A stretch of DNA of 64,000 nt from Escherichia phage ECp13. Below, in pieces: positions 3,077 through 63,654 of the stretch (its first letter is position 1; every line of letters starts with the position of its first letter). The stretch lies in the sequence record PP274704.1, one strand, 5' to 3'. The notes beneath the pieces are model-generated. The model saw nothing but the letters and a program-made list of their open reading frames with translations. It was not told the origin of the DNA and searched no databases. The translations under genes were made by a program, and so were the position numbers.

Positions 3077-3362
3077 AACGTATCGTCGTAAAGATTTAAA
3101 AGTACGTGATTATGACTATTTCGGAAAGCGTAAAGCTCCTGATGGTGTAAGTCATAAAGATATGGTTGAAAACATTTTTCGCTCTGATAAATGGCGTAGA
3201 ATGAAAGGCATTGATTCAGAAGTTAAAGATGAGCTAAATCGCCAATTACGTGGTGAAGTAAGAAAGTTGAAAAAATCAGTTTACATTGATGATGATTTTG
3301 ATTATAATACTTCTCAACGAGTTGCTAAGCGCAAATCAAACGAGTGCTATCGTTACAGCTGA
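3069..3362 (+). CDS. Hypothetical basic protein (97 aa from first ATG)
   Basis: ORF track 3030..3362; first in-frame ATG at 3069. Confidence 0.5.
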   Translation: MGKTYRRKDLKVRDYDYFGKRKAPDGVSHKDMVENIFRSDKWRRMKGIDSEVKDELNRQLRGEVRKLKKSVYIDDDFDYNTSQRVAKRKSNECYRYS

Positions 3363-3369
3363 GGAAAAT

Positions 3370-3501
3370 ATGAATATCAAACGCATGCTTTTTAAACAAG
3401 GATTATACACTTTAAATGTTGCTCCAAAAGGCGATACGACCAAGTGGTCAGTAAATGATTGGATTAAATTTATTGATGAAAATGGTAACTGGAAAATTTA
3501 A
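3370..3501 (+). CDS. Hypothetical protein (43 aa)
   Basis: ATG preceded by GAGGAAAA Shine-Dalgarno; in frame with ORF 3286..3501. Confidence 0.4.
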   Translation: MNIKRMLFKQGLYTLNVAPKGDTTKWSVNDWIKFIDENGNWKI

Positions 3502-6114: not shown

Positions 6115-6137
6115 AACCAAAACAATGAGGATATTAA

Positions 6138-7340
6138 ATGAAAGTATGCATTTTTATGGCTCGAGGTCTTGAAGGTTGCGGCGTAACTAAATTTTCTCTC
6201 GAGCAGCGTGATTGGTTTATTAAAAATGGTCATGAAGTAACTTTGGTTTATGCTAAAGATAAATCATTTACCCGTAATTGCGCGCATGATTATAAATCAT
6301 TTTCAATTCCGGTTTTATTGGCAAAAGAATACGATAAAACACTTAAGCTGGTAAATGATTGTGATATTCTAATTATCAATTCAGTTCCTGCTACTTCAGT
6401 CGAAGAAGACACTATTAATAACTATAAAAAAATTATTGATAACATTAAACCTTCAGTTCGTGTTGTAGTTTATCAACATGACCATTCTTCTCTTTCTTTG
6501 CGCCGAAATTTGGGATTAGAAGAAACTGTTCGTCGAGCTGATGTTATTTTTAGTCATTCTGATAATGGCGATTTTAATAAAGTTTTGATGAAAGAATGGT
6601 ATCCAGAAACAGTTTCTCTGTTTGATGATATTGAAGAAGCACCGACTGTATACAACTTTCAGCCTCCTATGGATATTGCGAAGGTTCGATCAACCTACTG
6701 GAAAGATGTTTCTGAAATTAATATGAATGTCAACCGTTGGATCGGTCGTACGACTACATGGAAAGGTTTTTATCAGATGTTTGATTTTCACGAAAAACAT
6801 CTTAAACCTGCGGGATTAAGTACTATTATGGAAGGTCTGGAACGTTCTCCTGCGTTCATTCCTATTAAAGAAAAAGGAATTCCATACGAATATTATCGTC
6901 TTCATCAAGTAGACCAAATTAAAATTGCTCCTAATTTGCCGACGCAAATTCTCGACCGTTATGTAAATAGCGAAATGCTTGAACGCATGAGTAAATCCGG
7001 ATTTGGTTATCAGCTGAGTAAGTTGGATAAAAAATATCTACAACGTTCTTTAGAATATACTCATCTCGAGCTTGGTGCGTGTGGAACAATTCCAGTATTT
7101 TGGAAATCTACTGGCGAAAATTTAAAATTCCGTGTTGATAATACTCCGTTAATTTCTCATGATAGCGGTATCGTTTGGTTTGATGAAAATGACATGGAAT
7201 CAACATTTGAGCGTATTAAAGAACTGTCATCTGACCGAAATCTTTATGACCGTGAACGCGAAAAAGCTTATGAATTTTTGTATCAGCATCAAGATTCAAG
7301 CTTCTGCTTTAAAGAACAGTTTGACATTATTACAAAATAA
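6138..7340 (+). CDS. agt: DNA alpha-glucosyltransferase
   Basis: 400 aa; N-terminus MKVCIFMARGLEGCGVTKFSLEQ matches remembered T4 alpha-gt; between 55 and 47. Confidence 0.85.
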   Translation: MKVCIFMARGLEGCGVTKFSLEQRDWFIKNGHEVTLVYAKDKSFTRNCAHDYKSFSIPVLLAKEYDKTLKLVNDCDILIINSVPATSVEEDTINNYKKIIDNIKPSVRVVVYQHDHSSLSLRRNLGLEETVRRADVIFSHSDNGDFNKVLMKEWYPETVSLFDDIEEAPTVYNFQPPMDIAKVRSTYWKDVSEINMNVNRWIGRTTTWKGFYQMFDFHEKHLKPAGLSTIMEGLERSPAFIPIKEKGIPYEYYRLHQVDQIKIAPNLPTQILDRYVNSEMLERMSKSGFGYQLSKLDKKYLQRSLEYTHLELGACGTIPVFWKSTGENLKFRVDNTPLISHDSGIVWFDENDMESTFERIKELSSDRNLYDREREKAYEFLYQHQDSSFCFKEQFDIITK

Positions 7341-7358
7341 AGGGCTTCGGCCCTTTAG
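7340..7358 (+). terminator. Intrinsic terminator GGGC-UUCG-GCCC plus T-run
   Basis: agggcttcggcccttt directly after agt stop. Confidence 0.6.
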
Positions 7359-12048: not shown

Positions 12049-12068
12049 AAAGGGCTTCGGCCCTTAAA
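12049..12068 (+). terminator. Hairpin GGGC-UUCG-GCCC after gene 45
   Basis: aaagggcttcggccctt. Confidence 0.5.
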
Positions 12069-12096
12069 TTTACACTAAAACTTGAATGAGGAAATT

Positions 12097-13056
12097 ATGA
12101 TTACTGTAAATGAAAAAGAACACATTCTTGAACAGAAATATCGTCCATCTACTATCGATGAATGTATTCTTCCCGCCTTTGATAAAGAAACCTTTAAATC
12201 TATTACAAGTAAAGGTAAAATTCCACATATTATTCTTCATTCTCCTTCTCCAGGAACAGGTAAAACAACTGTAGCAAAAGCATTGTGTCATGATGTAAAT
12301 GCTGATATGATGTTTGTGAATGGATCAGATTGTAAAATTGATTTCGTTCGTGGTCCTTTGACTAATTTTGCTAGTGCAGCTTCATTTGATGGTCGTCAAA
12401 AAGTAATCGTTATTGATGAATTTGACCGTTCAGGGTTAGCAGAGTCTCAGCGACATCTTCGTTCCTTTATGGAAGCTTATAGTTCAAACTGTAGTATTAT
12501 TATTACTGCTAACAATATTGATGGTATTATTAAACCGCTTCAGTCACGCTGCCGAGTTATTACATTCGGTCAACCGACCGATGAAGATAAAATTGAAATG
12601 ATGAAGCAGATGATTCGTCGATTGACTGAAATCTGCAAGCATGAAGGAATTGCTATAGCTGATATGAAAGTTGTAGCAGCTTTGGTTAAAAAGAATTTTC
12701 CTGATTTTCGTAAAACTATTGGTGAGCTCGATAGTTATTCATCTAAAGGTGTTTTGGATGCTGGTATTTTATCACTGGTTACTAACGATCGTGGTGCTAT
12801 TGATGATGTTCTTGAGTCTCTCAAAAATAAAGATGTTAAACAGCTCAGAGCTTTAGCACCAAAATATGCAGCTGATTATTCGTGGTTCGTAGGTAAACTT
12901 GCCGAAGAAATCTATACACGTGTAACTCCGCAAAGTATTATTCGTATGTATGAAATTGTTGGTGAAAATAACCAGTATCATGGAATTGCGGCTAATACGG
13001 AATTACATTTAGCATATCTTTTCATTCAATTAGCATGCGAAATGCAGTGGAAGTGA
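12097..13056 (+). CDS. 44: Clamp loader large subunit gp44 (AAA+)
   Basis: 319 aa from ATG 12097 (MITVNEKEH...); Walker A GTGKTT; SRC motif QSRCRV; ORF track start 12082 is TTG. Confidence 0.9.
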
Positions 13057-13057
13057 T

Positions 13058-13621
13058 ATGAGCTTATTTGAAGATGATATTCAATTAAACGAGCATCAAG
13101 TTGCTTGGTATTCAAAAGATTGGACAGCTGTCCAATCTGCTGCTGATTCTTTTAAGGAAAAAGCTGAAAATGAATTTTTTGAAATAATTGGAGCTATTAA
13201 TAATAAAACTAAATGCTCTATTGCTCAAAAAGATTATTCAAAATACATGGTTGAGAATGCATTATCACAATTTCCTGAATGCATGCCAGCTGTATATGCT
13301 ATGAATTTAATTGGATCAGGTTTAAGCGATGAAGCCCATTTTAATTATCTGATGGCTGCTGTTCCTCGTGGTAAAAGATATAGTAAATGGGCAAAACTGG
13401 TTGAAGATTCTACCGAAGTATTGATTATTAAGTTACTTGCTAAGCGGTATCAAGTTAATACAAATGATGCAATTAACTATAAATCAATTCTTACTAAAAA
13501 TGGAAAACTACCTTTAGTATTAAAAGAACTAAAAGGTTTAGTCACGGATGATTTTTTGAAAGAAGTGACTAAGAACGTAAAAGAACAGAAACAACTCAAA
13601 AAACTAGCATTGGAATGGTAA
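13058..13621 (+). CDS. 62: Clamp loader small subunit gp62
   Basis: 187 aa immediately after gp44. Confidence 0.85.
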
Positions 13622-16802: not shown

Positions 16803-16869
16803 TACAAGTAATATAAATCTATACTTAGGAAAAATAGATGATTCTAGGTCCTGTAAATTCATTAAAAAT

Positions 16870-16915
16870 TTTTTCACAAAACTGTTTACAAGACTGTTCC
16901 TCTGTGGTACTATTA
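16870..16915 (+). promoter_or_regulatory. Early promoter (GTTTAC, 18 nt, TACTAT); near-identical copy at 43590-43632
   Basis: aaactGTTTACaagactgttcctctgtggTACTATtac. Confidence 0.55.
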
Positions 16916-16947
16916 CTCTATCAACCAATACAAATTTGGAGAATGAA

Positions 16948-17328
16948 ATGAAAATTGCTATTTTGGTTATTGCATTGGGTCTTACTGGTTGTGTAGCTCA
17001 AGGACCAGTAGTAAATCAGTCTGATGCAGGAAAAATTGTAAACTGTTCAAGCAAATTTTATAATCCTAACGTCAAGTGTTATAAAGAAGCTCCAAAACAG
17101 ACAGTAGAACAAATGCAGGCGAATTTTGACGAAGCTATTCGTCCAGATGAATCTGCTCAAGCATATCGTAATTCAGATGTAATTACACGCGAAGAAAAAA
17201 TTGAAAACTACTGCGCCGAACTTTGGGCTAATTGGGCTAATAATTACCAATGGCGAACTGGTAAAAATGCTCCAATGGAGTATGTAGTGAATTCTTATAA
17301 TTCATGTGTAAAAAATTTGACTAAGTGA
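16948..17328 (+). CDS. Putative lipoprotein (126 aa)
   Basis: Signal peptide with lipobox LTGC; ORF track N-terminal extension 16759.. runs through the promoter and is rejected. Confidence 0.6.
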   Translation: MKIAILVIALGLTGCVAQGPVVNQSDAGKIVNCSSKFYNPNVKCYKEAPKQTVEQMQANFDEAIRPDESAQAYRNSDVITREEKIENYCAELWANWANNYQWRTGKNAPMEYVVNSYNSCVKNLTK

Positions 17329-24977: not shown

Positions 24978-25006
24978 TTATTGCTTTATATATTTATTGT
25001 ATAATT
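24978..25006 (+). promoter_or_regulatory. Middle promoter: MotA box TGCTTTA, 11 nt, TATAAT
   Basis: ttaTTGCTTTAtatatttattgTATAAT upstream of gene 56. Confidence 0.5.
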
Positions 25007-25039: not shown

Positions 25040-25557
25040 ATGGCTTACTTTAATGAATGTAGTCAACTGATTGAAGGCGCTGATAAAGCTCAAAATGAAT
25101 ACTGGGATATTCTCGGCGATGAAAAAGACCCGCTGCAGGTTATGCTTGATATGCAGAAATCTCTGCAGGTTCGTTTAGCTAAAGATAAACCTGAATATAA
25201 CCGTCATCCTGATGATTTGGCTACTGCAGGTGAAGTTGTTGATTGGCTGCGTAATCAGAAAGATTATATTGATGATGAATTCCGCGAACTTCTGACTTCT
25301 CTTGGTGGTATGAGCAATGGCGAAAAAGATGCATCTGCTGTATGGAAGCTTGGAAGTCGCAACACGGTGAACGTCGTGAAACTCTGATTACTGACTTATC
25401 TCCACAAGACCAGTTGGAAATTAAATTCGAAATGATTGATATTCTTCATTTCGTTCTGAACATGTTCCAAGGTCTCGGTCTTACGGCTGAAGAAATCTTT
25501 AAACTTTATTATCTGAAAAATGCTGAAAACTTCGCTCGTCAAGACCGAGGTTATTAA
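25040..25557 (+). pseudogene. 56: dCTPase/dUTPase gp56, interrupted by apparent 1-nt deletion near 25346-25350
   Basis: Frame A ends ...ASAVWK then runs to a stop at 25387; frame B resumes (E)AWKSQ...ARQDRGY; the two pieces sum to ~172 aa, the intact length. Confidence 0.6.
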
Positions 25558-25591
25558 TATAAACGACGGCTTAAAAGCTGTGAGAATTTAT

Positions 25592-25599
25592 TATAAATA
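25592..25599 (+). promoter_or_regulatory. Late promoter TATAAATA
   Basis: ttaTTATAAATAgtc about 30 nt upstream of soc. Confidence 0.55.
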
Positions 25600-25882: not shown

Positions 25883-25910
25883 AAGGACTCCTTCGGGAGT
25901 CCTTTTTTCA
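25883..25910 (+). terminator. Intrinsic terminator GGACUCC-UUCG-GGAGUCC plus T6
   Basis: aaggactccttcgggagtcctttttt. Confidence 0.7.
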
Positions 25911-25974
25911 TTTTACCGGTTTACTTTCCAAAACAAGTATGGTATAATAAAATTATCTTATAGAGGAGAGCACT

Positions 25975-27830: not shown

Positions 27831-28013
27831 ATGGATTTATTTGAGATGTTAGAAGATAATCATTCTACGAATATCCAGAATGATTCTAGTGATTATAAGA
27901 AAGAGTACCGTATAGTATTACAGAATTATGGAATTGAAGCCCCAGATGCTCTTCTAGAAGAACTAGCTTCATACCATCTTGACCCTCCGCCCTGGGCTCC
28001 CTGGGCAAAATAA
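27831..28013 (+). CDS. Hypothetical acidic protein (60 aa)
   Basis: ORF track. Confidence 0.45.
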   Translation: MDLFEMLEDNHSTNIQNDSSDYKKEYRIVLQNYGIEAPDALLEELASYHLDPPPWAPWAK

Positions 28014-28056
28014 TTCAAAAAGTTGTTTACTTTCCTTCCTAACAATGATATGATAG
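28014..28056 (+). promoter_or_regulatory. Early promoter (GTTTAC, 18 nt, TATGAT)
   Basis: aaagttGTTTACtttccttcctaacaatgaTATGAT. Confidence 0.5.
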
Positions 28057-28080
28057 CTTCTGAAGTATATGGAGGCTATC

Positions 28081-32529: not shown

Positions 32530-33212
32530 TGTTTGATTTTATTATAGATTTTGAAACAATGGGAAGCGGTGAAAAGGCAGCTGTTATTGATTTGGCTGTT
32601 ATTGCCTTTGACCCTAATCCAGAAGTAGTTGAAACATTTGATGAATTAGTTTCACGCGGCATTAAAATCAAGTTTGATTTAAAAAGCCAAAAAGGACATC
32701 GTCTTTTTACTAAAAGCACTATCGAATGGTGGAAAAATCAATCTCCTGAAGCTCGAAAAAATATTGCACCATCAGATGAAGATGTAAGCACTATCGATGG
32801 TATTGCAAAATTTAATGATTACATCAATGCGCATAATATCGATCCTTGGAAATCTCAAGGCTGGTGCCGTGGAATGTCGTTTGATTTTCCAATTTTAGTT
32901 GATCTCATTCGTGATATTCAGCGTCTTAACGGCGTTTCCGAGAATGAGCTTGATACGTTTAAGTTAGAACCTTGTAAATTCTGGAATCAACGCGATATTC
33001 GCACCAGAATTGAAGCACTTCTGCTTGTTCGTGATATGACCACATGTCCTCTTCCAAAGGGAACTTTAGACGGGTTCGTTGCGCATGATTCTATTCATGA
33101 CTGTGCGAAAGACATCCTGATGATGAAGTATGCTTTGCGATATGCTATGGGTCTTGAAGATGCTCCGTCAGAGGAAGAGTGCGATCCTCTATCTCTTCCA
33201 ACAAAACGATAA
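32529..33212 (+). CDS. dexA: Exonuclease A DexA (DEDD family)
   Basis: 227 aa; N-terminal DFETMG motif. Confidence 0.85.
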   Translation: MFDFIIDFETMGSGEKAAVIDLAVIAFDPNPEVVETFDELVSRGIKIKFDLKSQKGHRLFTKSTIEWWKNQSPEARKNIAPSDEDVSTIDGIAKFNDYINAHNIDPWKSQGWCRGMSFDFPILVDLIRDIQRLNGVSENELDTFKLEPCKFWNQRDIRTRIEALLLVRDMTTCPLPKGTLDGFVAHDSIHDCAKDILMMKYALRYAMGLEDAPSEEECDPLSLPTKR

Positions 33213-33252
33213 AAAGTTGTTTACTTCCTCGGTTAGTTGTGGTATTATAACA
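33210..33252 (+). promoter_or_regulatory. Early promoter (GTTTAC plus TATTAT)
   Basis: aaaagttGTTTACttcctcggttagttgtggTATTATaac. Confidence 0.5.
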
Positions 33253-33275
33253 CCATAGCTACTGAGGATAATAAA

Positions 33276-34400: not shown

Positions 34401-34898
34401 ATGATTATTAATATTGGTGAAATTGCTCGTGTATCTGATAAATCCCGTTCTAAAGCAGCAGGAAAATTGGTTGAAATTGTAAGCATTCAGCTTAAACACG
34501 GTGTTAAAGATGAAGATTCTGAAGTAAAAGTGCGTATCATTCCTAAAGATGGAAAATCTAAACCTCAGTTTGGCTATGTTCGTGCGAAATTTATTGAGTC
34601 TGCGTTTTTGAAAGCTGTTCCTGCTAAAGGAATTGAAACGATTGATACTTCGCATGTAGGCGTAGACTTTAAGTGGAAACTCGGTCAAGCTATTAAGTTC
34701 GTTGCTCCTTATGAATTCGAATTTACTGAAGATGAGGAAGGGGTTGTTCAAAAACACCGTACTCGCGCTATGTGTGCATACATTACCGATCAGTGGGTAG
34801 AAGATGGCGTTAAGTTGTACAACGCGGTATTTTTAGGAACATACAAAGTCATTCCAGAAAGTTGGATTAAACACTATAGCAAAGCCCGCTGTGCATAA
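34401..34898 (+). CDS. Hypothetical protein (165 aa), paralog of 33782..34324
   Basis: ORF with GAGAGATAA SD. Confidence 0.55.
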   Translation: MIINIGEIARVSDKSRSKAAGKLVEIVSIQLKHGVKDEDSEVKVRIIPKDGKSKPQFGYVRAKFIESAFLKAVPAKGIETIDTSHVGVDFKWKLGQAIKFVAPYEFEFTEDEEGVVQKHRTRAMCAYITDQWVEDGVKLYNAVFLGTYKVIPESWIKHYSKARCA

Positions 34899-34927
34899 AG
34901 TTTAAAATTTTTTCATAAAACTATATA

Positions 34928-34972
34928 CATCAGTAGTTGATTATGGTACTATATCAATATCAACTACTGATA
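34928..34972 (+). promoter_or_regulatory. Promoter-embedded stem-loop: 11-bp inverted repeat flanking a -10-like TATGGTACTATAT
   Basis: tcagtagttga (34930-40) pairs with tcaactactga (34960-70). Confidence 0.4.
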
Positions 34973-34995
34973 CAGAAAACAACTTGGAGAATAAA

Positions 34996-36731: not shown

Positions 36732-36750
36732 AAGGCCTTCGGGCCTTTAG
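36731..36750 (+). terminator. Hairpin AGGCC-UUCG-GGCCU plus U-rich tail
   Basis: aaaggccttcgggccttt. Confidence 0.55.
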
Positions 36751-36800: not shown

Positions 36801-38618
36801 ATGATTAAGAATGAAATTAAAATTCTGAGCGATATTGAACATATCAAAAAGCGTAGCGGCATGTACATTGGCTCTTCCGCTAATGAAATGCATGAGCGCT
36901 TTCTGTTTGGTAAATGGGAAAGTGTTCAGTATGTACCTGGTCTTGTTAAGCTTATTGATGAAATTATCGATAACTCAGTAGATGAAGGTATTCGTACTAA
37001 GTTTAAATTCGCGAATAAAATTAATGTTACTATCAAAAACAATCAAGTAACAGTTGAAGATAACGGTCGTGGTATTCCACAAGCGATGGTTAAAACACCT
37101 ACTGGTGAAGAAATTCCCGGTCCTGTTGCCGCCTGGACTATTCCAAAAGCAGGTGGTAACTTCGGTGATGATAAAGAACGTGTCACTGGCGGTATGAACG
37201 GTGTTGGTTCTAGTTTAACTAACATTTTTTCTGTGATGTTTGTCGGTGAAACTGGCGACGGTCAAAATAATATTGTAGTTCGTTGTTCAAATGGCATGGA
37301 AAATAAATCATGGGAAGATATTCCCGGAAAATGGAAAGGAACTCGTGTTACTTTCATTCCTGATTTTATGTCATTTGAAACTAATGAGCTGTCTCAAGTT
37401 TATCTTGACATTACACTGGATCGTCTCCAGACACTTGCAGTAGTTTATCCTGATATTCAATTTACCTTTAATGGTAAAAAGGTTCAGGGTAATTTTAAGA
37501 AATATGCACGCCAATATGATGAGCATGCTATTGTTCAAGAACAAGAAAATTGTTCTATTGCGGTTGGTCGTTCACCAGATGGTTTTCGTCAATTAACATA
37601 CGTCAATAACATTCATACTAAGAATGGTGGCCATCACATTGACTGCGTTATGGATGATATTTGTGAAGACCTTATTCCACAAATCAAACGTAAGTTCAAA
37701 ATTGATGTAACTAAAGCACGTGTTAAAGAATGTTTGACTATCGTTATGTTTGTTCGTGATATGAAAAACATGCGATTTGATTCTCAGACTAAAGAGCGTT
37801 TGACTTCTCCATTTGGTGAAATTCGTAGTCATATTCAGCTTGATGCTAAAAAGATTTCACGTGCTATTTTAAATAATGAAGCAATTTTAATGCCAATTAT
37901 TGAAGCTGCCTTGGCTCGTAAATTGGCAGCAGAAAAAGCAGCAGAAACTAAAGCAGCTAAAAAGGCTTCTAAAGCTAAGGTTCATAAACATATTAAAGCG
38001 AATCTTTGTGGTAAAGACGCTGACACTACTCTTTTCTTGACTGAGGGTGATTCTGCTATCGGATATCTTATTGATGTTCGTGATAAAGAACTTCATGGTG
38101 GTTATCCATTGCGTGGTAAAGTTCTCAACAGTTGGGGTATGTCATATGCTGATATGCTTAAAAACAAAGAACTGTTTGATATTTGTGCAATTACTGGATT
38201 AGTTCTTGGTGAAAAAGCTGAAAACTTGAATTATCATAATATTGCTATTATGACCGATGCTGACCATGATGGTCTAGGAAGCATTTATCCTTCTCTGCTC
38301 GGATTTTTTAGTAATTGGCCAGAACTGTTTGAACAAGGAAGAATTCGCTTCGTCAAAACTCCTGTAATCATCGCTCAGGTCGGTAAAAAACAAGAATGGT
38401 TTTATACAGTCGCTGAATATGAGAGTGCCAAAGATGCTCTACCTAAACATAGCATCCGTTATATTAAGGGACTTGGCTCTTTGGAAAAATCTGAATATCG
38501 TGAGATGATTCAAAACCCAGTATATGATGTTGTTAAACTTCCTGAGAACTGGAAAGAGCTTTTTGAAATGCTCATGGGAGATAATGCTGACCTTCGTAAA
38601 GAATGGATGAGCCAATAG
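36801..38618 (+). CDS. 39: Topoisomerase II large subunit gp39, uninterrupted full-length form (includes the part T4 encodes as gene 60)
   Basis: 605 aa; GHKL ATPase N-domain; TOPRIM LTEGDSAIGY; PLRGK. Confidence 0.9.
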   Translation: MIKNEIKILSDIEHIKKRSGMYIGSSANEMHERFLFGKWESVQYVPGLVKLIDEIIDNSVDEGIRTKFKFANKINVTIKNNQVTVEDNGRGIPQAMVKTPTGEEIPGPVAAWTIPKAGGNFGDDKERVTGGMNGVGSSLTNIFSVMFVGETGDGQNNIVVRCSNGMENKSWEDIPGKWKGTRVTFIPDFMSFETNELSQVYLDITLDRLQTLAVVYPDIQFTFNGKKVQGNFKKYARQYDEHAIVQEQENCSIAVGRSPDGFRQLTYVNNIHTKNGGHHIDCVMDDICEDLIPQIKRKFKIDVTKARVKECLTIVMFVRDMKNMRFDSQTKERLTSPFGEIRSHIQLDAKKISRAILNNEAILMPIIEAALARKLAAEKAAETKAAKKASKAKVHKHIKANLCGKDADTTLFLTEGDSAIGYLIDVRDKELHGGYPLRGKVLNSWGMSYADMLKNKELFDICAITGLVLGEKAENLNYHNIAIMTDADHDGLGSIYPSLLGFFSNWPELFEQGRIRFVKTPVIIAQVGKKQEWFYTVAEYESAKDALPKHSIRYIKGLGSLEKSEYREMIQNPVYDVVKLPENWKELFEMLMGDNADLRKEWMSQ

Positions 38619-38650
38619 TTTACTTTACCACAAGGATGTGGTATAATTAA
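38610..38650 (+). promoter_or_regulatory. Early promoter (GTTTAC, 18 nt, TATAAT)
   Basis: tagtttactttaccacaaggatgtggtataat. Confidence 0.55.
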
Positions 38651-38672
38651 TTGGGCAAATGAGGATATTGAA

Positions 38673-38876
38673 ATGAAATCATATAGAGTAAATTTAGAAC
38701 TTTTTGATAAAGCAGTTCATCGAGAATATAGAATCATTCAACGCTTTTTCGATATGGGAGAAGCTGAAGAGTTTAAAAACCGCTTTAAGGATATTAGAGA
38801 TAAAATTCAATCCGACACCGCAACTAAAGATGAACTACTAGAAGTTGCTGAAGTTATTAAACGCAATATGAATTAA
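38673..38876 (+). CDS. Hypothetical protein (67 aa), rIIA.1 position
   Basis: ORF track; GAGGATATTG SD. Confidence 0.5.
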
Positions 38877-38886
38877 TGAGGAAATT

Positions 38887-41063
38887 ATGATTATCACCAC
38901 TGAAAAAGAAACAATTCTTGGTAATGGTTCTAAATCAAAAGCATTTAGCATCACAGCATCTCCTAAAGTATTCAAAATTCTGTCATCTGATTTGTATACA
39001 AACAAGATTCGCGCAGTAGTCCGTGAATTGATTACCAACATGATTGATGCCCATGCTCTCAATGGAAATCCTGAAAAATTTATCATTCAAGTTCCAGGAC
39101 GATTAGATCCGCGATTTGTTTGTCGAGATTTTGGTCCAGGTATGAGCGATTTTGATATTCAAGGTGATGATAATTCTCCTGGGTTGTATAATTCATACTT
39201 TAGTTCATCTAAGGCTGAATCTAACGATTTCATTGGTGGATTTGGTTTAGGTTCTAAATCTCCGTTTAGTTATACTGATACATTTAGTATTACTTCATAT
39301 CATAAAGGCGAAATTCGTGGTTATGTAGCTTACATGGATGGCGATGGTCCACAAATTAAACCTACATTTGTAAAAGAAATGGGTCCAGATGATAAAACTG
39401 GTATTGAAATCGTAGTTCCAGTTGAAGAAAAAGACTTTAGAAACTTTGCTTATGAAGTTTCTTATATCATGCGACCATTCAAAGATTTAGCTATCATTAA
39501 TGGTCTTGACCGCGAAATTGATTATTTTCCGGATTTTGATGACTATTACGGCGTAAATCCAGAAAGATACTGGCCAGATCGTGGTGGATTGTATGCTATC
39601 TATGGCGGTATTGTTTATCCTATCGATGGTGTTATTAGAGACCGTAACTGGTTAAGCATCCGTAATGAAGTGAATTACATTAAGTTTCCAATGGGTTCAC
39701 TTGATATTGCTCCATCACGCGAAGCTCTTTCACTAGATGATCGTACTCGTAAAAATATTATTGAGCGTGTTAAAGAGCTTAGTGAGAAGGCATTCAATGA
39801 AGATGTAAAACGATTTAAAGAATCTACATCTCCTCGTCATACATACCGTGAATTGATGAAGATGGGATATTCTGCTCGAGATTATATGATTAGTAATTCA
39901 GTCAAATTTACGACTAAAAATCTGTCATATAAGAAGATGCAAAGCATGTTTGAACCAGATAGTAAGCTATGCAATGCAGGAGTTGTGTATGAAGTAAATC
40001 TTGACCCTCGACTGAAACGCATTAAGCAAAGTCATGAAACTTCAGCCGTTGCATCAAGTTATCGTCTGTTCGGTATTAATACAACAAAAATTAATATCGT
40101 TATTGATAATATTAAAAATCGCGTTAATATTGTCCGTGGATTAGCGCATGCGTTAGATGATAAAGAATTTAATAACACTTTAAATATTCATCACAACGAG
40201 CGTCTTCTGTTTATTAATCCGGAAGTAGAATCGCAGATTGATTTACTCCCTGATATTATGGCAATGTTTGAAAGTGATGAAGTTAACTTCATCACTTGTC
40301 AGAAATTGAAGCTTTAGTTAAAAGTTATATTCCGAAGGCAGTTAAAAGTAAAGCTCCTCGTCCTAAAGCTGCTACTGCGTTTAAGTTTGAAATTAAAGAC
40401 GGGCGCTGGGAAAAAGAGGAACTGTTTACACTTACGTCAGAAGCAGATGAAATTACTGGTTATGTAGCATACATGCATCGTTCTGATATTTTCTCTATGG
40501 ATGGTACTACATCGCTCTGTAATCCGTCTACGAGTATTTTGACTCGTATGGCTAATCTTATTGGCATTAATGAATTTTATGTTATTCGTCCACTTTTGCA
40601 GAAAAAGGTAAAAGAACTTGGTCAGTGCCAATGTATTTTTGAAACTCTACGTGATTTATATGTAGATGCTTTTGATGATGTAGATTATGATAAGTATGTA
40701 GGTTATTCAAGTTCAGCTAAACGATATATTGATAAAATTATCAAGTATCCTGAGTTAGATTTTATGATGAAGTACTTCAGTGTAGATGAAGTTTCCGAAG
40801 AATATACACGACTCGCTAATATGGTTAGTTCATTACAGGGTGTATATTTCAACTGTGGAAAAGATACCATCGGTCATGACATCTGGACAGTAACTAATCT
40901 TTTTGATGTATTATCAAACAATGCTTCAAAAAACAGTGATAAAATGGTTACTGAGTTTACTAAGAAATTCCGTATTGTTTCCGACTTCATCGGTTATCGC
41001 AACTCTTTAAGTGATGATGAAGTTTCCCAAATCGCTAAAACTATGAAGGCCCTTGCGGCCTAA
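38887..41063 (+). pseudogene. rIIA: rIIA, split by apparent 1-nt deletion between 40284 and 40296
   Basis: ORF 38887..40317 (476 aa) plus ORF 40296..41063 (255 aa) together match remembered 725 aa rIIA; frame changes at ...FESDEV / [10 protein letters not shown]. Confidence 0.7.
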
Positions 41064-41074
41064 TAAGGAAAATT

Positions 41075-42013
41075 ATGTACAATATTAAATGCCTGACCAA
41101 AAACGAACAATCTGAAATTGTCAAACTGTATTCAAGTGGTAATTACACCCAACAGGAATTGGCTGATTGGCAAGGTGTATCGGTGGACACAATCCGTCGT
41201 GTTTTGAAAAATGCTGAAGAAGCTGAGCGCTCTAAAGTTACTATTAGTGGTGATATTACAGTTAAAGTTAATAGCGATGCAGTTATTGCTCCAGTTGCTA
41301 AATCTGACATTATTTGGAATGCATCTAAAAAATTCATTTCAATTACTGTTGACGGTGTAACTTATAACGCAACTCCTAATACTCATTCAAACTTCCAGGA
41401 AATTCTTAATCTGCTTGTTGCAGATAAATTGGAAGAAGCGGCACAAAAAATTAATGTTCGACGCGCTGTTGAAAAATATATTTCCGGTGATGTTCGAATT
41501 GAAGGTGGAAGCTTGTTCTATCAAAATATTGAATTGCGATCTGGTTTAGTTGATCGTATTCTCGATTCGATGGAAAAAGGCGAAAACTTTGAATTTTATT
41601 TTCCGTTCTTGGAAAATCTGTTGGAAAACCCGAGCCAAAAAGCGGTATCTCGACTCTTTGATTTCTTGGTAGCAAACGATATTGAAATCACAGAAGATGG
41701 TTACTTCTATGCTTGGAAAGTAGTTCGCAGTAATTACTTTGATTGTCATTCAAATACTTTTGATAACAGTCCTGGTAAAGTAGTTAAAATGCCACGTACT
41801 CGTGTGAATGACGATGATACACAAACTTGTTCTCGTGGTCTGCATGTGTGTTCTAAATCTTATATTCGTCACTTTGGCAGTTCAACCAGCCGAGTTGTAA
41901 AAGTTAAAGTACATCCTCGCGATGTAGTATCAATTCCGATTGATTACAATGATGCTAAAATGCGTACCTGCCAATACGAAGTAGTTGAAGACGTTACTGA
42001 ACAATTTAAATAA
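41075..42013 (+). CDS. rIIB: rIIB
   Basis: 312 aa; MYNIKCLTKNEQSEIVKLYSSGNYTQQELADWQGVS matches remembered T4 rIIB. Confidence 0.8.
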   Translation: MYNIKCLTKNEQSEIVKLYSSGNYTQQELADWQGVSVDTIRRVLKNAEEAERSKVTISGDITVKVNSDAVIAPVAKSDIIWNASKKFISITVDGVTYNATPNTHSNFQEILNLLVADKLEEAAQKINVRRAVEKYISGDVRIEGGSLFYQNIELRSGLVDRILDSMEKGENFEFYFPFLENLLENPSQKAVSRLFDFLVANDIEITEDGYFYAWKVVRSNYFDCHSNTFDNSPGKVVKMPRTRVNDDDTQTCSRGLHVCSKSYIRHFGSSTSRVVKVKVHPRDVVSIPIDYNDAKMRTCQYEVVEDVTEQFK

Positions 42014-42030
42014 GGGCTTCGGCCCTTAAC
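42011..42030 (+). terminator. Hairpin GGGC-UUCG-GCCC
   Basis: taagggcttcggccctt overlapping rIIB stop. Confidence 0.45.
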
Positions 42031-42239: not shown

Positions 42240-42262
42240 AAGGGGCTTCGGCCCTTTTGTTT
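42240..42262 (+). terminator. Intrinsic terminator GGGC-UUCG-GCCC plus T4
   Basis: aaggggcttcggcccttttg. Confidence 0.6.
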
Positions 42263-42604: not shown

Positions 42605-43094
42605 CTTGACTAGTGAAATGAAGGTCAAAATTGCTGATACAGCAAGATACTCTTTAAAACAAAATCCAAATCAGGATAAAGCAGAAGTTATTGAAAGATG
42701 TCGTATCGCGGTGTACGCAGAATTTTTTGTAGCAGATTGGCTAAGTGGGTATGTTAACAAAGGCCAAGAAGATGTTAATGACCCGTATACATATGCATGG
42801 GATGTATTGGCGCATCCAAGATACTGCGGGCTTCGTGTAGAAGTTAAGACACATCAAACTGACTCACGTTGGATTTCTGTAACAACAGGATGCAGCGGAG
42901 AGTATCCATATGGTTCTGGAATAAATCTAGGGCCCATTCTGAATCATCAGGTCGCTGACTGTATAATTATATTCAACACTAAAGAAATTCATCCAGGTGT
43001 CATCCAGTACACTCCGAAGTTCATTGGTGATAGAGAAGACCTTCGTAAGGTTGTAAGAAAAAGCAACTACAACGGATGGTATCTTTCCATTTAA
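42537..43094 (+). CDS. denB: Endonuclease IV DenB (probable, by length and position)
   Basis: 185 aa ATG ORF with AGGAAA SD between rIIB and ndd. Confidence 0.55.
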   Translation: MQKTNPGLQRLFQIPTFTLSNSDLTSEMKVKIADTARYSLKQNPNQDKAEVIERCRIAVYAEFFVADWLSGYVNKGQEDVNDPYTYAWDVLAHPRYCGLRVEVKTHQTDSRWISVTTGCSGEYPYGSGINLGPILNHQVADCIIIFNTKEIHPGVIQYTPKFIGDREDLRKVVRKSNYNGWYLSI

Positions 43095-43145
43095 AAAATT
43101 TTCACAAAACGGTTTACATACCACAAGGACTGTGGTACTATACAA
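43095..43145 (+). promoter_or_regulatory. Early promoter cassette (GTTTAC, 18 nt, TACTAT) with conserved upstream AAAATTTTCACAAAACG
   Basis: Same cassette family at 46885-46935 and 63565-63612. Confidence 0.55.
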
Positions 43146-43175
43146 CTATCAACTGATACGGATTTGGAGAATAAA

Positions 43176-43382
43176 ATGTTTACTACAGCTGAATTAAAAC
43201 GAGCAAAAGCTAAGAAAGGGCAAGGAAAATATAAAGCTGAATTAGTTAAAGAACTTCAGTTTGCTGAGGCTGAATTGAATTCAATGATTATTCAAAATGC
43301 TCCAGAAACTGAAATTGCTCTTAAACGTATTGCGAATAAGTGTCTTCGTGATGCAATCGTCGATCTTTTAGCAGATTATTGA
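43176..43382 (+). CDS. Hypothetical protein (68 aa)
   Basis: ATG with GGAGAATAAA SD; track start 43164 is TTG. Confidence 0.5.
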   Translation: MFTTAELKRAKAKKGQGKYKAELVKELQFAEAELNSMIIQNAPETEIALKRIANKCLRDAIVDLLADY

Positions 43383-43589
43383 GTAAAATGAAAATCATTG
43401 AGATTGAACTATGAGTTCATTGTGGTGGTGTTTTGTTTGGTTAATTAGTATTCCATTAATTTGTTTAACATTTACTTTTGTAATGAGGTTATTATGAAAA
43501 TTTTGAATTCTGTGCTTATTGCTTGTGCGTGGTGGGTTGCGCAAGTTTCGGCAGTGGTGATTGGTATTCACATTTATTACGAATATTTT

Positions 43590-43632
43590 TAAAAAAGTTG
43601 TTTACAAGACTGTTCCTCTGTGGTATTATTAC
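43590..43632 (+). promoter_or_regulatory. Early promoter, near-identical copy of the 16870-16915 cassette
   Basis: aaagttGTTTACaagactgttcctctgtggTATTATtac. Confidence 0.55.
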
Positions 43633-43657
43633 CCTATCAACTACGGAGGAACAGAAA

Positions 43658-44995: not shown

Positions 44996-45068
44996 TTTCC
45001 ATAACGAACATGTGATGCAGTTCTATCGTAACAATCTTAAAACCAAAGGCGTCTTCGGACGCCAGTGA
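44988..45068 (+). CDS. stp: Stp peptide (26 aa), activator of host PrrC anticodon nuclease
   Basis: [26 protein letters not shown], 26 codons, next to ac and 52. Confidence 0.75.
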
Positions 45069-45075
45069 GGAAAAT

Positions 45076-45234
45076 ATGAATATCGCAAAATTATTAGGAG
45101 TTATTTCATTTATTTGTTGGATAGTAGCATGTGTTTTAACTATCTGTATCGATGCTAGCAGTGTGTTTTCACAAGCTTTAGCCCAGGGTATGTGTGCATA
45201 TTTAACATTTGTGTTGTTATCTACTAATGATTAA
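45076..45234 (+). CDS. ac: Ac (acridine sensitivity) membrane protein, probable
   Basis: 52 aa hydrophobic ORF with GAGGAAAA SD between stp and 52. Confidence 0.6.
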   Translation: MNIAKLLGVISFICWIVACVLTICIDASSVFSQALAQGMCAYLTFVLLSTND

Positions 45235-46849: not shown

Positions 46850-46880
46850 TAGGGAGAGCCAAGGCTCTCCCTTTTTTATT
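46850..46880 (+). terminator. Intrinsic terminator GGGAGAGCC-AA-GGCTCTCCC plus T6
   Basis: agggagagccaaggctctccctttttt. Confidence 0.7.
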
Positions 46881-46884
46881 TCAA

Positions 46885-46935
46885 AAATTTTTTCACAAAA
46901 CGGTTTACAACCAAAGCATACTGTGGTATTATACA
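46885..46935 (+). promoter_or_regulatory. Early promoter cassette (GTTTAC, 18 nt, TATTAT)
   Basis: ttttttcacaaaacgGTTTACaaccaaagcatactgtggTATTAT. Confidence 0.55.
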
Positions 46936-46973
46936 ACTATCAACTACTGATACAGAATTACGGAGATTAGAAA

Positions 46974-49267: not shown

Positions 49268-49416
49268 GTCATAATCTTGAAAAGGTAATCGAGCATAATG
49301 TAGCTCAGGAACGTAAGTCGTTCAAGGAATTCGTAGAAAAAATTTTTGAAGAAAATACTACAGACCAGTTTACAAATCAAGCGTCTGATGATATTATAAC
49401 AAAGTCAACTAATTGA
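49264..49416 (+). CDS. Hypothetical protein (50 aa)
   Basis: ATGA overlap with arn stop. Confidence 0.3.
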   Translation: MSHNLEKVIEHNVAQERKSFKEFVEKIFEENTTDQFTNQASDDIITKSTN

Positions 49417-49428
49417 GTGGTATAGTTA

Positions 49429-50358: not shown

Positions 50359-50388
50359 AGACCCTCCTTTTAAGGATATTTATTCAAA

Positions 50389-54511
<4,123 letters not shown>

Positions 54512-62501: not shown

Positions 62502-62509
62502 TTGCTTAT

Positions 62510-62517
62510 TATAAATA
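62510..62517 (+). promoter_or_regulatory. Late promoter TATAAATA upstream of gene 32
   Basis: attgcttatTATAAATAgat. Confidence 0.45.
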
Positions 62518-62534
62518 GATTATAATTATCTCAC

Positions 62535-62600
62535 TGACCAGCTATGAGGTCATACATCGTCATAGCACCAACTGTTAATTAAATTAAAAAGGAAATAAAA
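62535..62600 (+). promoter_or_regulatory. Gene 32 autoregulatory operator: H-type pseudoknot plus A/U-rich gp32 binding tract
   Basis: TGACC(62535-39) pairs GGTCA(62548-52); GCTATGA(62541-47) pairs TCATAGC(62560-66); then ttaattaaattaaaaaggaaataaaaATG. Confidence 0.65.
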
Positions 62601-63529: not shown

Positions 63530-63558
63530 TTGGGGACCCTAGAGGTCCCCTTTTTTAT
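63530..63558 (+). terminator. Intrinsic terminator GGGGACC-loop-GGTCCCC plus T6
   Basis: ggggaccctagaggtcccctttttt. Confidence 0.7.
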
Positions 63559-63564
63559 TTCAAA

Positions 63565-63612
63565 AATTTTTTCACAAAACGGTTTACATACTATAAGAAC
63601 TGTGGTACTATA
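63565..63612 (+). promoter_or_regulatory. Early promoter cassette (GTTTAC, 18 nt, TACTAT)
   Basis: ttttttcacaaaacgGTTTACatactataagaactgtggTACTAT. Confidence 0.55.
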
Positions 63613-63654
63613 CAACTATCGGCAATACTGCTGATGATTAAAGAGGAAAATAAT

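Follow-up and report, generated by a model that had tools for sequence, protein, structure and literature searches.

The early promoters of bacteriophage T4 have been characterised for decades. They have been described as "über" UP/-35/TGn/-10 promoters with extra consensus regions (Hinton 2010, PMC2988021), and their GTTTAC has been placed at -36 to -31 (Nolan 2006, PMC1524935). Promoter-early stem-loops (PeSLs) were presented as recombination cassettes by Arbiol et al. 2010 (PMC2839356), and Comeau et al. 2014 (PMC4122927) extended the PeSL concept to T4 versus PST, with an ndd.4/.5 exchange downstream of denB in their Fig. 6A. A stem-loop adjoining the promoter is the defining feature of a PeSL. 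Another related system is that of the IP loci of T-even phages, which have conserved promoter- and terminator-like flanks (Repoila et al. 1994, as cited in PMC2839356 and PMC4122927). Like the cassettes described here, the IP loci are a case in T-even phages where conserved regulatory sequence brackets interchangeable small genes, at a different locus. Both the promoters and the recombination-cassette idea are already known, having been published in 2010 and 2014. Our study adds a gene-boundary control, of low power, and evidence pointing to spacer and leader conversion in a high-homology subfamily of these promoters.

The DNA that we analysed, called the window here, is a stretch of 64,000 nucleotides of Escherichia phage ECp13 (sequence record PP274704.1), from the genome of a Tequatrovirus (T4-like) phage. 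Between 42 and 48 kb it has 96–98% identity with many Tequatrovirus genomes and carries the genes rIIB, denB, ndd, ac, gene 52, motA, and arn. Its plus strand is the early-transcribed strand of T4, and the T4 equivalent of the whole window runs from ~41 kb, back through 0, to ~146 kb. BLAST blocks of comparator genomes were chained against the window, using homologous stretches of 24–50 kb each from T4, ESh26, GiZh, G3F7, LF73P3, TH09, and KNP5, plus 8 kb of ime09. An exact-pattern scan of IMG/VR for the cassette core gave 10 stretches on few contigs, and GenBank phages were used for comparison instead. Compared with T4, the window is without mobB, dam, segF, segG, and the mobA/60.1/gene 60 split, and its gene 39 is continuous; the sites of these absences (6122-6147, 24979-25000, 25520-25592, 38218-38283, and 62502-62538) are all away from the promoter cassettes. 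The largest non-homologous block of the window is the gp37/gp38 distal tail-fibre/adhesin region at 50383-54365, a known host-range module, which is replaced relative to T4, GiZh, ESh26, G3F7, and LF73P3. Gene 34 (proximal long tail fibre), on the minus strand, contains direct repeats ~110–120 bp apart (58590-58609/58698-58717 and 58664-58687/58784-58807).

The first-pass annotation of this DNA drew attention to a sequence at 43095-43175 as one of several early-promoter cassettes, and it was correct both in recognising early promoters and in invoking the published PeSL idea. This plus-strand cassette is the entire gap from the denB stop codon to the next ATG (43176). Its -35, GTTTAC, is at 43112, followed by the spacer ataccacaaggactg, then TGGTACTAT, and the leader ACAACTATCAACTGATACGGATTT; a UP element and a GGAG Shine-Dalgarno are also present. 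Naming each cassette by the position of its -35, we find the same order of parts throughout: an A/T-rich UP element, the -35 GTTTAC, a 15-bp spacer, the extended -10 TGGTAYTAT, a leader, a Shine-Dalgarno, and an ATG. Six copies have AAAAATTTTTTCACAAAAC before the -35, and the remaining copies are A-rich upstream (a UP-like element at ~-40 to -60). The leader frequently takes the form ACAACTATCAACT(AC)TGATAC. In each cassette the ATG stands 45–75 nt 3' of the -10 with the Shine-Dalgarno between, and in 6 of the 11 strong copies the latter is GGAG, which the T4 endoribonuclease RegB targets. All cassettes are co-directional with the gene just downstream, and the genes that follow them (imm.1, motA, asiA, frd.3, and ndd.x) are T4 early genes.

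Based on their consensus and on their orthology to T4, from which we infer their activity, the cassettes are T4-type sigma-70 early promoters. The motif, the spacing, the A/T-rich upstream element, the orientation, and the place before early genes are the same as in T4 early promoters, and we see no substantive difference between the two, the window genome being ~92–98% identical to T4 over aligned blocks and carrying other accessory ORFs. Promoter features are absent from the annotation of the RefSeq and GenBank T4 records. Small ORFs, annotated or merely open, lie over early promoter cores in Melville (1394-1498, CPT_Melville_088) and in the window (16838-16951 and 43076-43156), and these are probably not genes.

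The other cassettes are also on the plus strand. Downstream of 43112 is a variable 68-aa ORF of the RB32ORF266c family (43176..43382, plus strand), and the next early promoter, before an ndd.4-like ORF, spans 43575-43657, with its -35 at 43600 and the spacer aagactgttcctctg. The imm.1 early promoter is at 16859-16947 (-35 at 16884). At motA, a terminator hairpin that stands after motA.1 (46851-46872, then a T-run) and the early promoter (-35 at 46903) together occupy 46851-46973, and the gene 32 terminator hairpin (63532-63550, then a T-run) is similarly placed before the frd.3 early promoter (63532-63654, -35 at 63582). A PeSL-type arrangement is also present at 25883-25974, where a hairpin and T-run are 14 nt upstream of the early promoter (-35 at 25919), whose spacer is orthologously stable. 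Spacers are likewise stable among orthologues at 2815-2899 (-35 at 2840), at 38593-38672 over the 3' end of gene 39 (-35 at 38618), and at 49343-49428 before asiA (-35 at 49368), and that of the early promoter at 33194-33275 (-35 at 33219) is invariant in all genomes compared. A weak early-promoter-like site is found at 28000-28068 (-35 at 28025, PWM score 12.7). The cassettes had been proposed to flank exactly the small-ORF islands, which holds for the 43112/43600 pair only; the remaining ones head ordinary early operons (imm.1/imm/42, motA, asiA, rIIA.1, and frd.3).

One further copy, at 34898-34995, has a degenerate -35 (ATATAC at 34923) and carries its -10 in the loop of a palindrome at 34929-34971. 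The inverted repeat that had been described here at 34928-34972 is real, but its size was given as 11 bp, and the arms (34929-34948, ATCAGTAGTTGAT, and 34952-34971, ATCAACTACTGAT) are in fact 20 nt long and 85% complementary (perfectly so over the outer 13 nt); the DNA fold z is -4.6. The common early leader makes up the right arm, and the spacer's place is taken by the left one. The palindrome could bind a dimeric protein, or it could form a cruciform. This cassette was recovered from six comparator genomes, all with an identical sequence. Elsewhere in the window, perfect palindromes lie inside coding regions at 13117-13138 (22 bp, AGATTGGACAGCTGTCCAATCT) and 40272-40297 (26 bp, AAGTGATGAAGTTAACTTCATCACTT).

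An unbiased self-BLAST of the window shows that the cassettes are its main dispersed repeats. All six copies named in the first-pass annotation are present at the coordinates given there, and the self-BLAST recovers the same repeats: 46869-46909 is identical to 63548-63588 (41 bp, 100%, E=1e-15), 43099-43150 resembles 63569-63620 (52 bp, 94%, E=4e-15), 43099-43154 resembles 46890-46945 (58 bp, 90%), and the leader at 34958-34977 is identical to 46938-46957 (20 bp, 100%). The near-identity that had been reported between 16865-16925 and 43590-43650 is found as a match of 16883-16925 to 43599-43641 (43 bp, 95%, E=4e-12). PeSL exchange requires recombination-grade similarity, and the matches of 41, 52, and 43 bp (100%, 94%, and 95%, respectively) provide it. 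The number of copies in the window is 12, as against the six named. The motif GTTTAC-N15-TGGTAYTAT with at most one mismatch occurs at 10 sites in the 64-kb window, all on the plus strand, compared with 0.03 expected from shuffles, and a PWM scan of the window gives 12 sites on the plus strand and 0 on the minus strand, adding the degenerate 34923 copy and the weak 28025 copy to the strict-motif set. A generic sigma-70 scan had no discriminating power in DNA this rich in AT (19 sites vs. 17 expected), although the only plus-strand sites that combine a TG extension with a spacer of 17 nt in the stretch it covered were the three cassettes located there. Rfam families had no match anywhere in the window, and the leader that the cassettes share is therefore no known RNA element. 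A second dispersed family, unrelated to the promoter cassettes, is made up of AAAGGGCTTCGGCCCTTT hairpins with a UUCG-type tetraloop between genes (7339-7356, 12050-12067, 36733-36750, 42012-42029, and 42240-42257), which we take to be the known very stable T4 terminator/mRNA hairpins. Identical 19-bp ribosome-binding-site/start-codon blocks also occur before unrelated genes, with 12085-12103 matching 38875-38893 (AATGAGGAAATTATGATTA) and 3360-3378 matching 45066-45084 (TGAGGAAAATATGAATATC).

The stem-loop half of the PeSL is less general. A terminator hairpin with a T-run stands directly upstream in only 3 of the 12 cassettes (25919, 46903, and 63582), and this sets the cassettes apart from the PeSLs of PMC2839356 and PMC4122927; 46903, for one, is a true PeSL-type arrangement. 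At 2840 and 16884 the hairpin is ~82–85 nt away (~82 nt upstream at 16884), and the hairpin search found no adjoining stem-loop at the named 43112 cassette, at 43600, or at the remaining cassettes. Because 43095-43175 has no stem-loop, the named cassette is a promoter and not the composite PeSL of Arbiol et al. In other respects the cassettes resemble PeSLs: repeated early-promoter cassettes lie beside variable small ORFs, and promoter-ORF-promoter modules occur.

In its strong form, the PeSL model holds that the cassettes are what chiefly drives modular gene shuffling, with recombination between neighbouring cassettes excising promoter-plus-ORF mini-circles that reintegrate at other cassettes. 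The model is published, with mini-circles detected in RB49 and phi1 (PMC2839356), and it was extended to T4/PST apparently at the same locus as here, the ndd.4/.5 exchange locus of PMC4122927 Fig. 6A appearing to be 43.1–43.8 kb of the window. It is also favoured by the interval between 43112 and 43600, the only close cassette pair, being the most polymorphic small region. On the other hand, an adjoining stem-loop in 3 of 12 cassettes speaks against it, as do the positions of the junctions. The strong cassettes are at the same orthologous position in every genome whose compared region covers them, with one exception, the 38618 site in GiZh, which has no PWM match and where the spacer has one base fewer. 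Within the genus the cassettes stay in place.

To compare junctions, we counted a junction as cassette-associated if it fell within -60 to +85 of a cassette -35. We counted 24 distinct events, indels or replacements, among 8 genomes, and five have a cassette junction: an extra ORF in five genomes directly after the ATG of cassette 16884 (16948-16961), the 5' edge of cassette 34923 (34892), ATG+7 of the same cassette (35003), the leader/ATG of cassette 43112 (43154-43178), and the interior of cassette 46903 (46924-46946). The 19 events without a cassette junction include the homing-endonuclease insertions mobB, segF, segG, and mobA with the gene 60 split, as well as dam, exchanges of a glucosyltransferase and of the gp37/38 adhesin, and several indels of small ORFs. 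With uniform placement as the null, five cassette events exceed the 1.2 expected (P=0.006). We rejected this enrichment as evidence of a hotspot, because the indels are gene-precise and the cassettes sit at gene boundaries. Most early-region junctions (31 of 39) are within 60 nt of a gene boundary, which makes gene boundaries the fair null. On this null, junctions occur at 4 of 12 cassette-bearing boundaries and 23 of 88 others (OR 1.4, P=0.41; P=0.36 in a cruder form of the comparison), where 8 genomes and ~24 phylogenetically non-independent events can exclude only strong (roughly >2.5-fold) enrichment. The suggestion that the cassettes are special synteny breakpoints is not borne out: in this data set, at low power, they are no likelier to be indel junctions than other gene boundaries. 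This absence of a junction excess, together with the 19 events that have no junction at a cassette, argues against the strong PeSL model and distinguishes our results from the PeSL papers. No gene-boundary control for cassette junctions was found in the main text of PMC4122927 or in searches of PMC2839356.

Most gene-sized indels, including the cassette-adjacent ones, end in 7–14 bp direct repeats at start codons, and the events at cassettes 16884, 34923, and 43112 have one end only at the cassette, the other being a start-codon microhomology of 7–14 bp. After cassette 16884, the extra ORF of five comparators (233–258 bp) is flanked by ATGAAAATTG, a direct repeat of 10 bp (16948-16957 in the window) with which the extra ORF and imm.1 both begin, and no second promoter was found at this extra ORF. 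The 68-aa ORF after 43112 is flanked by TAAAATG repeats (43172-43178 and 43384-43390) and is missing in T4, which looks like a precise deletion between these repeats. These start-codon repeats suggest microhomology-mediated gain and loss of small ORFs with MKI... N-termini. Deletion between short direct repeats is a known illegitimate route (Albertini et al. 1982, as cited in PMC4122927), and the 7–14 bp repeats at the indel ends (ATGAAAATTG, TAAAATG, and GCGGTAGTAG) are of the same kind. Unlike in the deletions reported there, the repeats here are concentrated at translation starts, which probably reflects which deletions survive selection and not where deletions arise. The shortened T4 genome MZ375356 was considered as a cassette-to-cassette deletion and rejected; it is a laboratory genome-reduced mutant, and its deletion in this region joins at GCGGTAGTAG, a 10-bp microhomology inside coding sequence.

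Some junctions do fall inside cassettes. An unrelated ORF takes the place of the 68-aa ORF in GiZh, G3F7, KNP5, and JK08, and the last three diverge from the window within the 43112 leader, between ACAACTATCA and GCTACGGAGGA, with an incoming leader that resembles the leader of cassette 43600. Junctions between the -10 and the ATG are found at 43154 (G3F7 and KNP5) and at 46924-46946 (G3F7 and LF73P3), in agreement with the crossover zone from the -10 to the Shine-Dalgarno/ATG that was mapped experimentally in RB49 (PMC2839356). The insertion at 46903 is the only event that brings a second promoter. Contrary to the strong PeSL model, the right-hand junctions in the 43112–43600 interval are at 43381-43393, the ndd.6 start codon, and never at cassette 43600. 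Junction positions as given here are where homology ends, not necessarily where strands crossed, and homology of the flanks from phage to phage lets ordinary recombination during co-infection move junction alleles. In 128 records the 68-aa ORF has one place per genome, and in those with T4's start point its distance from the record end does not vary, with no movement there.

The cassette might also be a site that a dedicated recombinase or nuclease recognises, comparable to an integron attC or a homing site. A stem-loop-binding protein was speculated upon by Arbiol et al. (PMC2839356), and a dimeric protein could bind the palindrome at 34929-34971. However, the junctions lie anywhere from the UP element to ATG+7, with no fixed point, the copies are immobile within the genus, and the homing-endonuclease events (mobB, segF, segG, and mobA) are all away from the cassettes. 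We regard a dedicated site of this kind as extremely improbable.

Apparent conversion of spacers and leaders is a clearer sign of exchange from cassette to cassette than the indels are. The frd.3 spacer has 5 forms in 7 genomes, with nearly invariant flanks. In LF73P3 the frd.3 locus carries the 43112 spacer (15/15) and the motA locus carries the frd.3 spacer of T4, ESh26, and KNP5 (15/15), and the 43600 spacer is found at 16884 in both the window and G3F7 (15/15). Orthologous spacers differ at 8 or more of 15 positions, while identical 15-mers recur at different loci; the chance identity of two 15-mers is ~1e-9. Shuffling of spacers occurs only in the five long-arm cassettes (16884, 43112, 43600, 46903, and 63582), and the six divergent ones keep their orthologous spacers. 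For population counts we used synthetic 130-nt queries differing in the spacer only, at the frd.3 locus of ~460 genomes and at least 95% identity. By this count ~266 records are 16884-like, ~96 are T4-type, and ~58 are 43112-type, with invariant flanks. Thirteen of the 43112-type records match at 99% or more, and three, among the matches listed, match all 130 nt; the window's own frd.3 spacer has 3 mismatches to that of 43112. An assembly artefact is unlikely to lie behind the spacer swaps, each class being present in dozens of independently sequenced genomes.

These spacers also bear on another reading, in which the cassettes are promoters alone. The copies would then not recombine, and their likeness would be due only to functional convergence or to purifying selection, the promoters being very strong. 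This would agree with a T4 early consensus that reaches well past the -35 and -10 (PMC2988021), with the fixed positions of the cassettes, and with the lack of junction enrichment. Yet the spacer is outside the consensus, and identical 15-mers at different loci contradict such a reading, as do flanks that are invariant across the frd.3 spacer classes, and we find it very hard to credit. We lean instead, with some caution, towards a subfamily of early promoters that evolves in concert, in which ectopic short-patch conversion would swap the 15-bp spacer, and sometimes the leader, so that several alleles segregate per promoter in natural populations of Tequatrovirus. Spacer swapping or gene conversion is undescribed in the main text of PMC4122927 and was not found in searches of PMC2839356, with the subscription literature outside the scope of this comparison.

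A tandem module is found at motA, where G3F7 and LF73P3 have a promoter, a leader, a 75-aa ORF, a second promoter, the same 23-bp leader, and then motA. This promoter-ORF75-promoter arrangement supports the strong PeSL model. The 75-aa ORF family also occurs in Gelderlandvirus Melville, at an unrelated locus beside a nucleotidyl-transferase gene, and in Jiaodavirus Metamorpho, at an unrelated locus beside a tRNA cluster, and at each locus in the three genera (Tequatrovirus, Gelderlandvirus, and Jiaodavirus) an early promoter is found on both sides of it, which is a further point in favour of the model. Within Tequatrovirus, by contrast, the 75-aa ORF is present once per genome at a constant locus, and like the 68-aa ORF it keeps to that single place. 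Taken with the junction data, we judge the strong PeSL model to be unlikely for these cassettes. The description of the cassettes as portable recombination modules stands in part: there is spacer exchange, there are some in-cassette junctions, and there is one promoter-ORF-promoter module, but there is no breakpoint excess over other gene boundaries, at low power, and the positions are fixed.

We therefore consider it likely that the cassettes are early promoters first, that exchange between them is a by-product of homology and not a dedicated function, and that they are not preferred indel junctions. Their primary job would be the recruitment of host RNA polymerase right after infection, and it would be because of this early-promoter function that they share the UP element, the -35, the extended -10, and GGAG, and that they are uniformly oriented upstream of genes. 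Five copies (16884, 43112, 43600, 46903, and 63582) have in addition identical arms of 25–40 bp around a free 15-bp spacer, and arms of this length would allow the phage homologous recombination machinery to pair copies ectopically. The visible result would be short-patch gene conversion that carries spacers (and leaders) from one locus to another, and in rarer cases a promoter-plus-ORF module may be inserted or replaced, with the crossover between the -10 and the ATG. A rare ectopic event could create a spacer allele, and orthologous recombination in co-infections could then spread it. The recombination pathway, like promoter activity, is inferred here, while the significance of the motif, the orthology of the positions, the identity of spacers at different loci, and the places of the junctions are observed.

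For the biology of these phages, the result is first of all one of calibration: on a fair null the cassettes of the window are not preferred breakpoints, and the clearest trace of recombination is the swapping of spacers, not the shuffling of genes. If true, spacer conversion could re-tune promoter strength or Alt-responsiveness while leaving the recognition elements untouched. Should it hold genus-wide, it would provide a natural read-out of ectopic recombination between homologies of 25–40 bp in T4, and would also supply naturally occurring spacer variants for the study of promoter strength.
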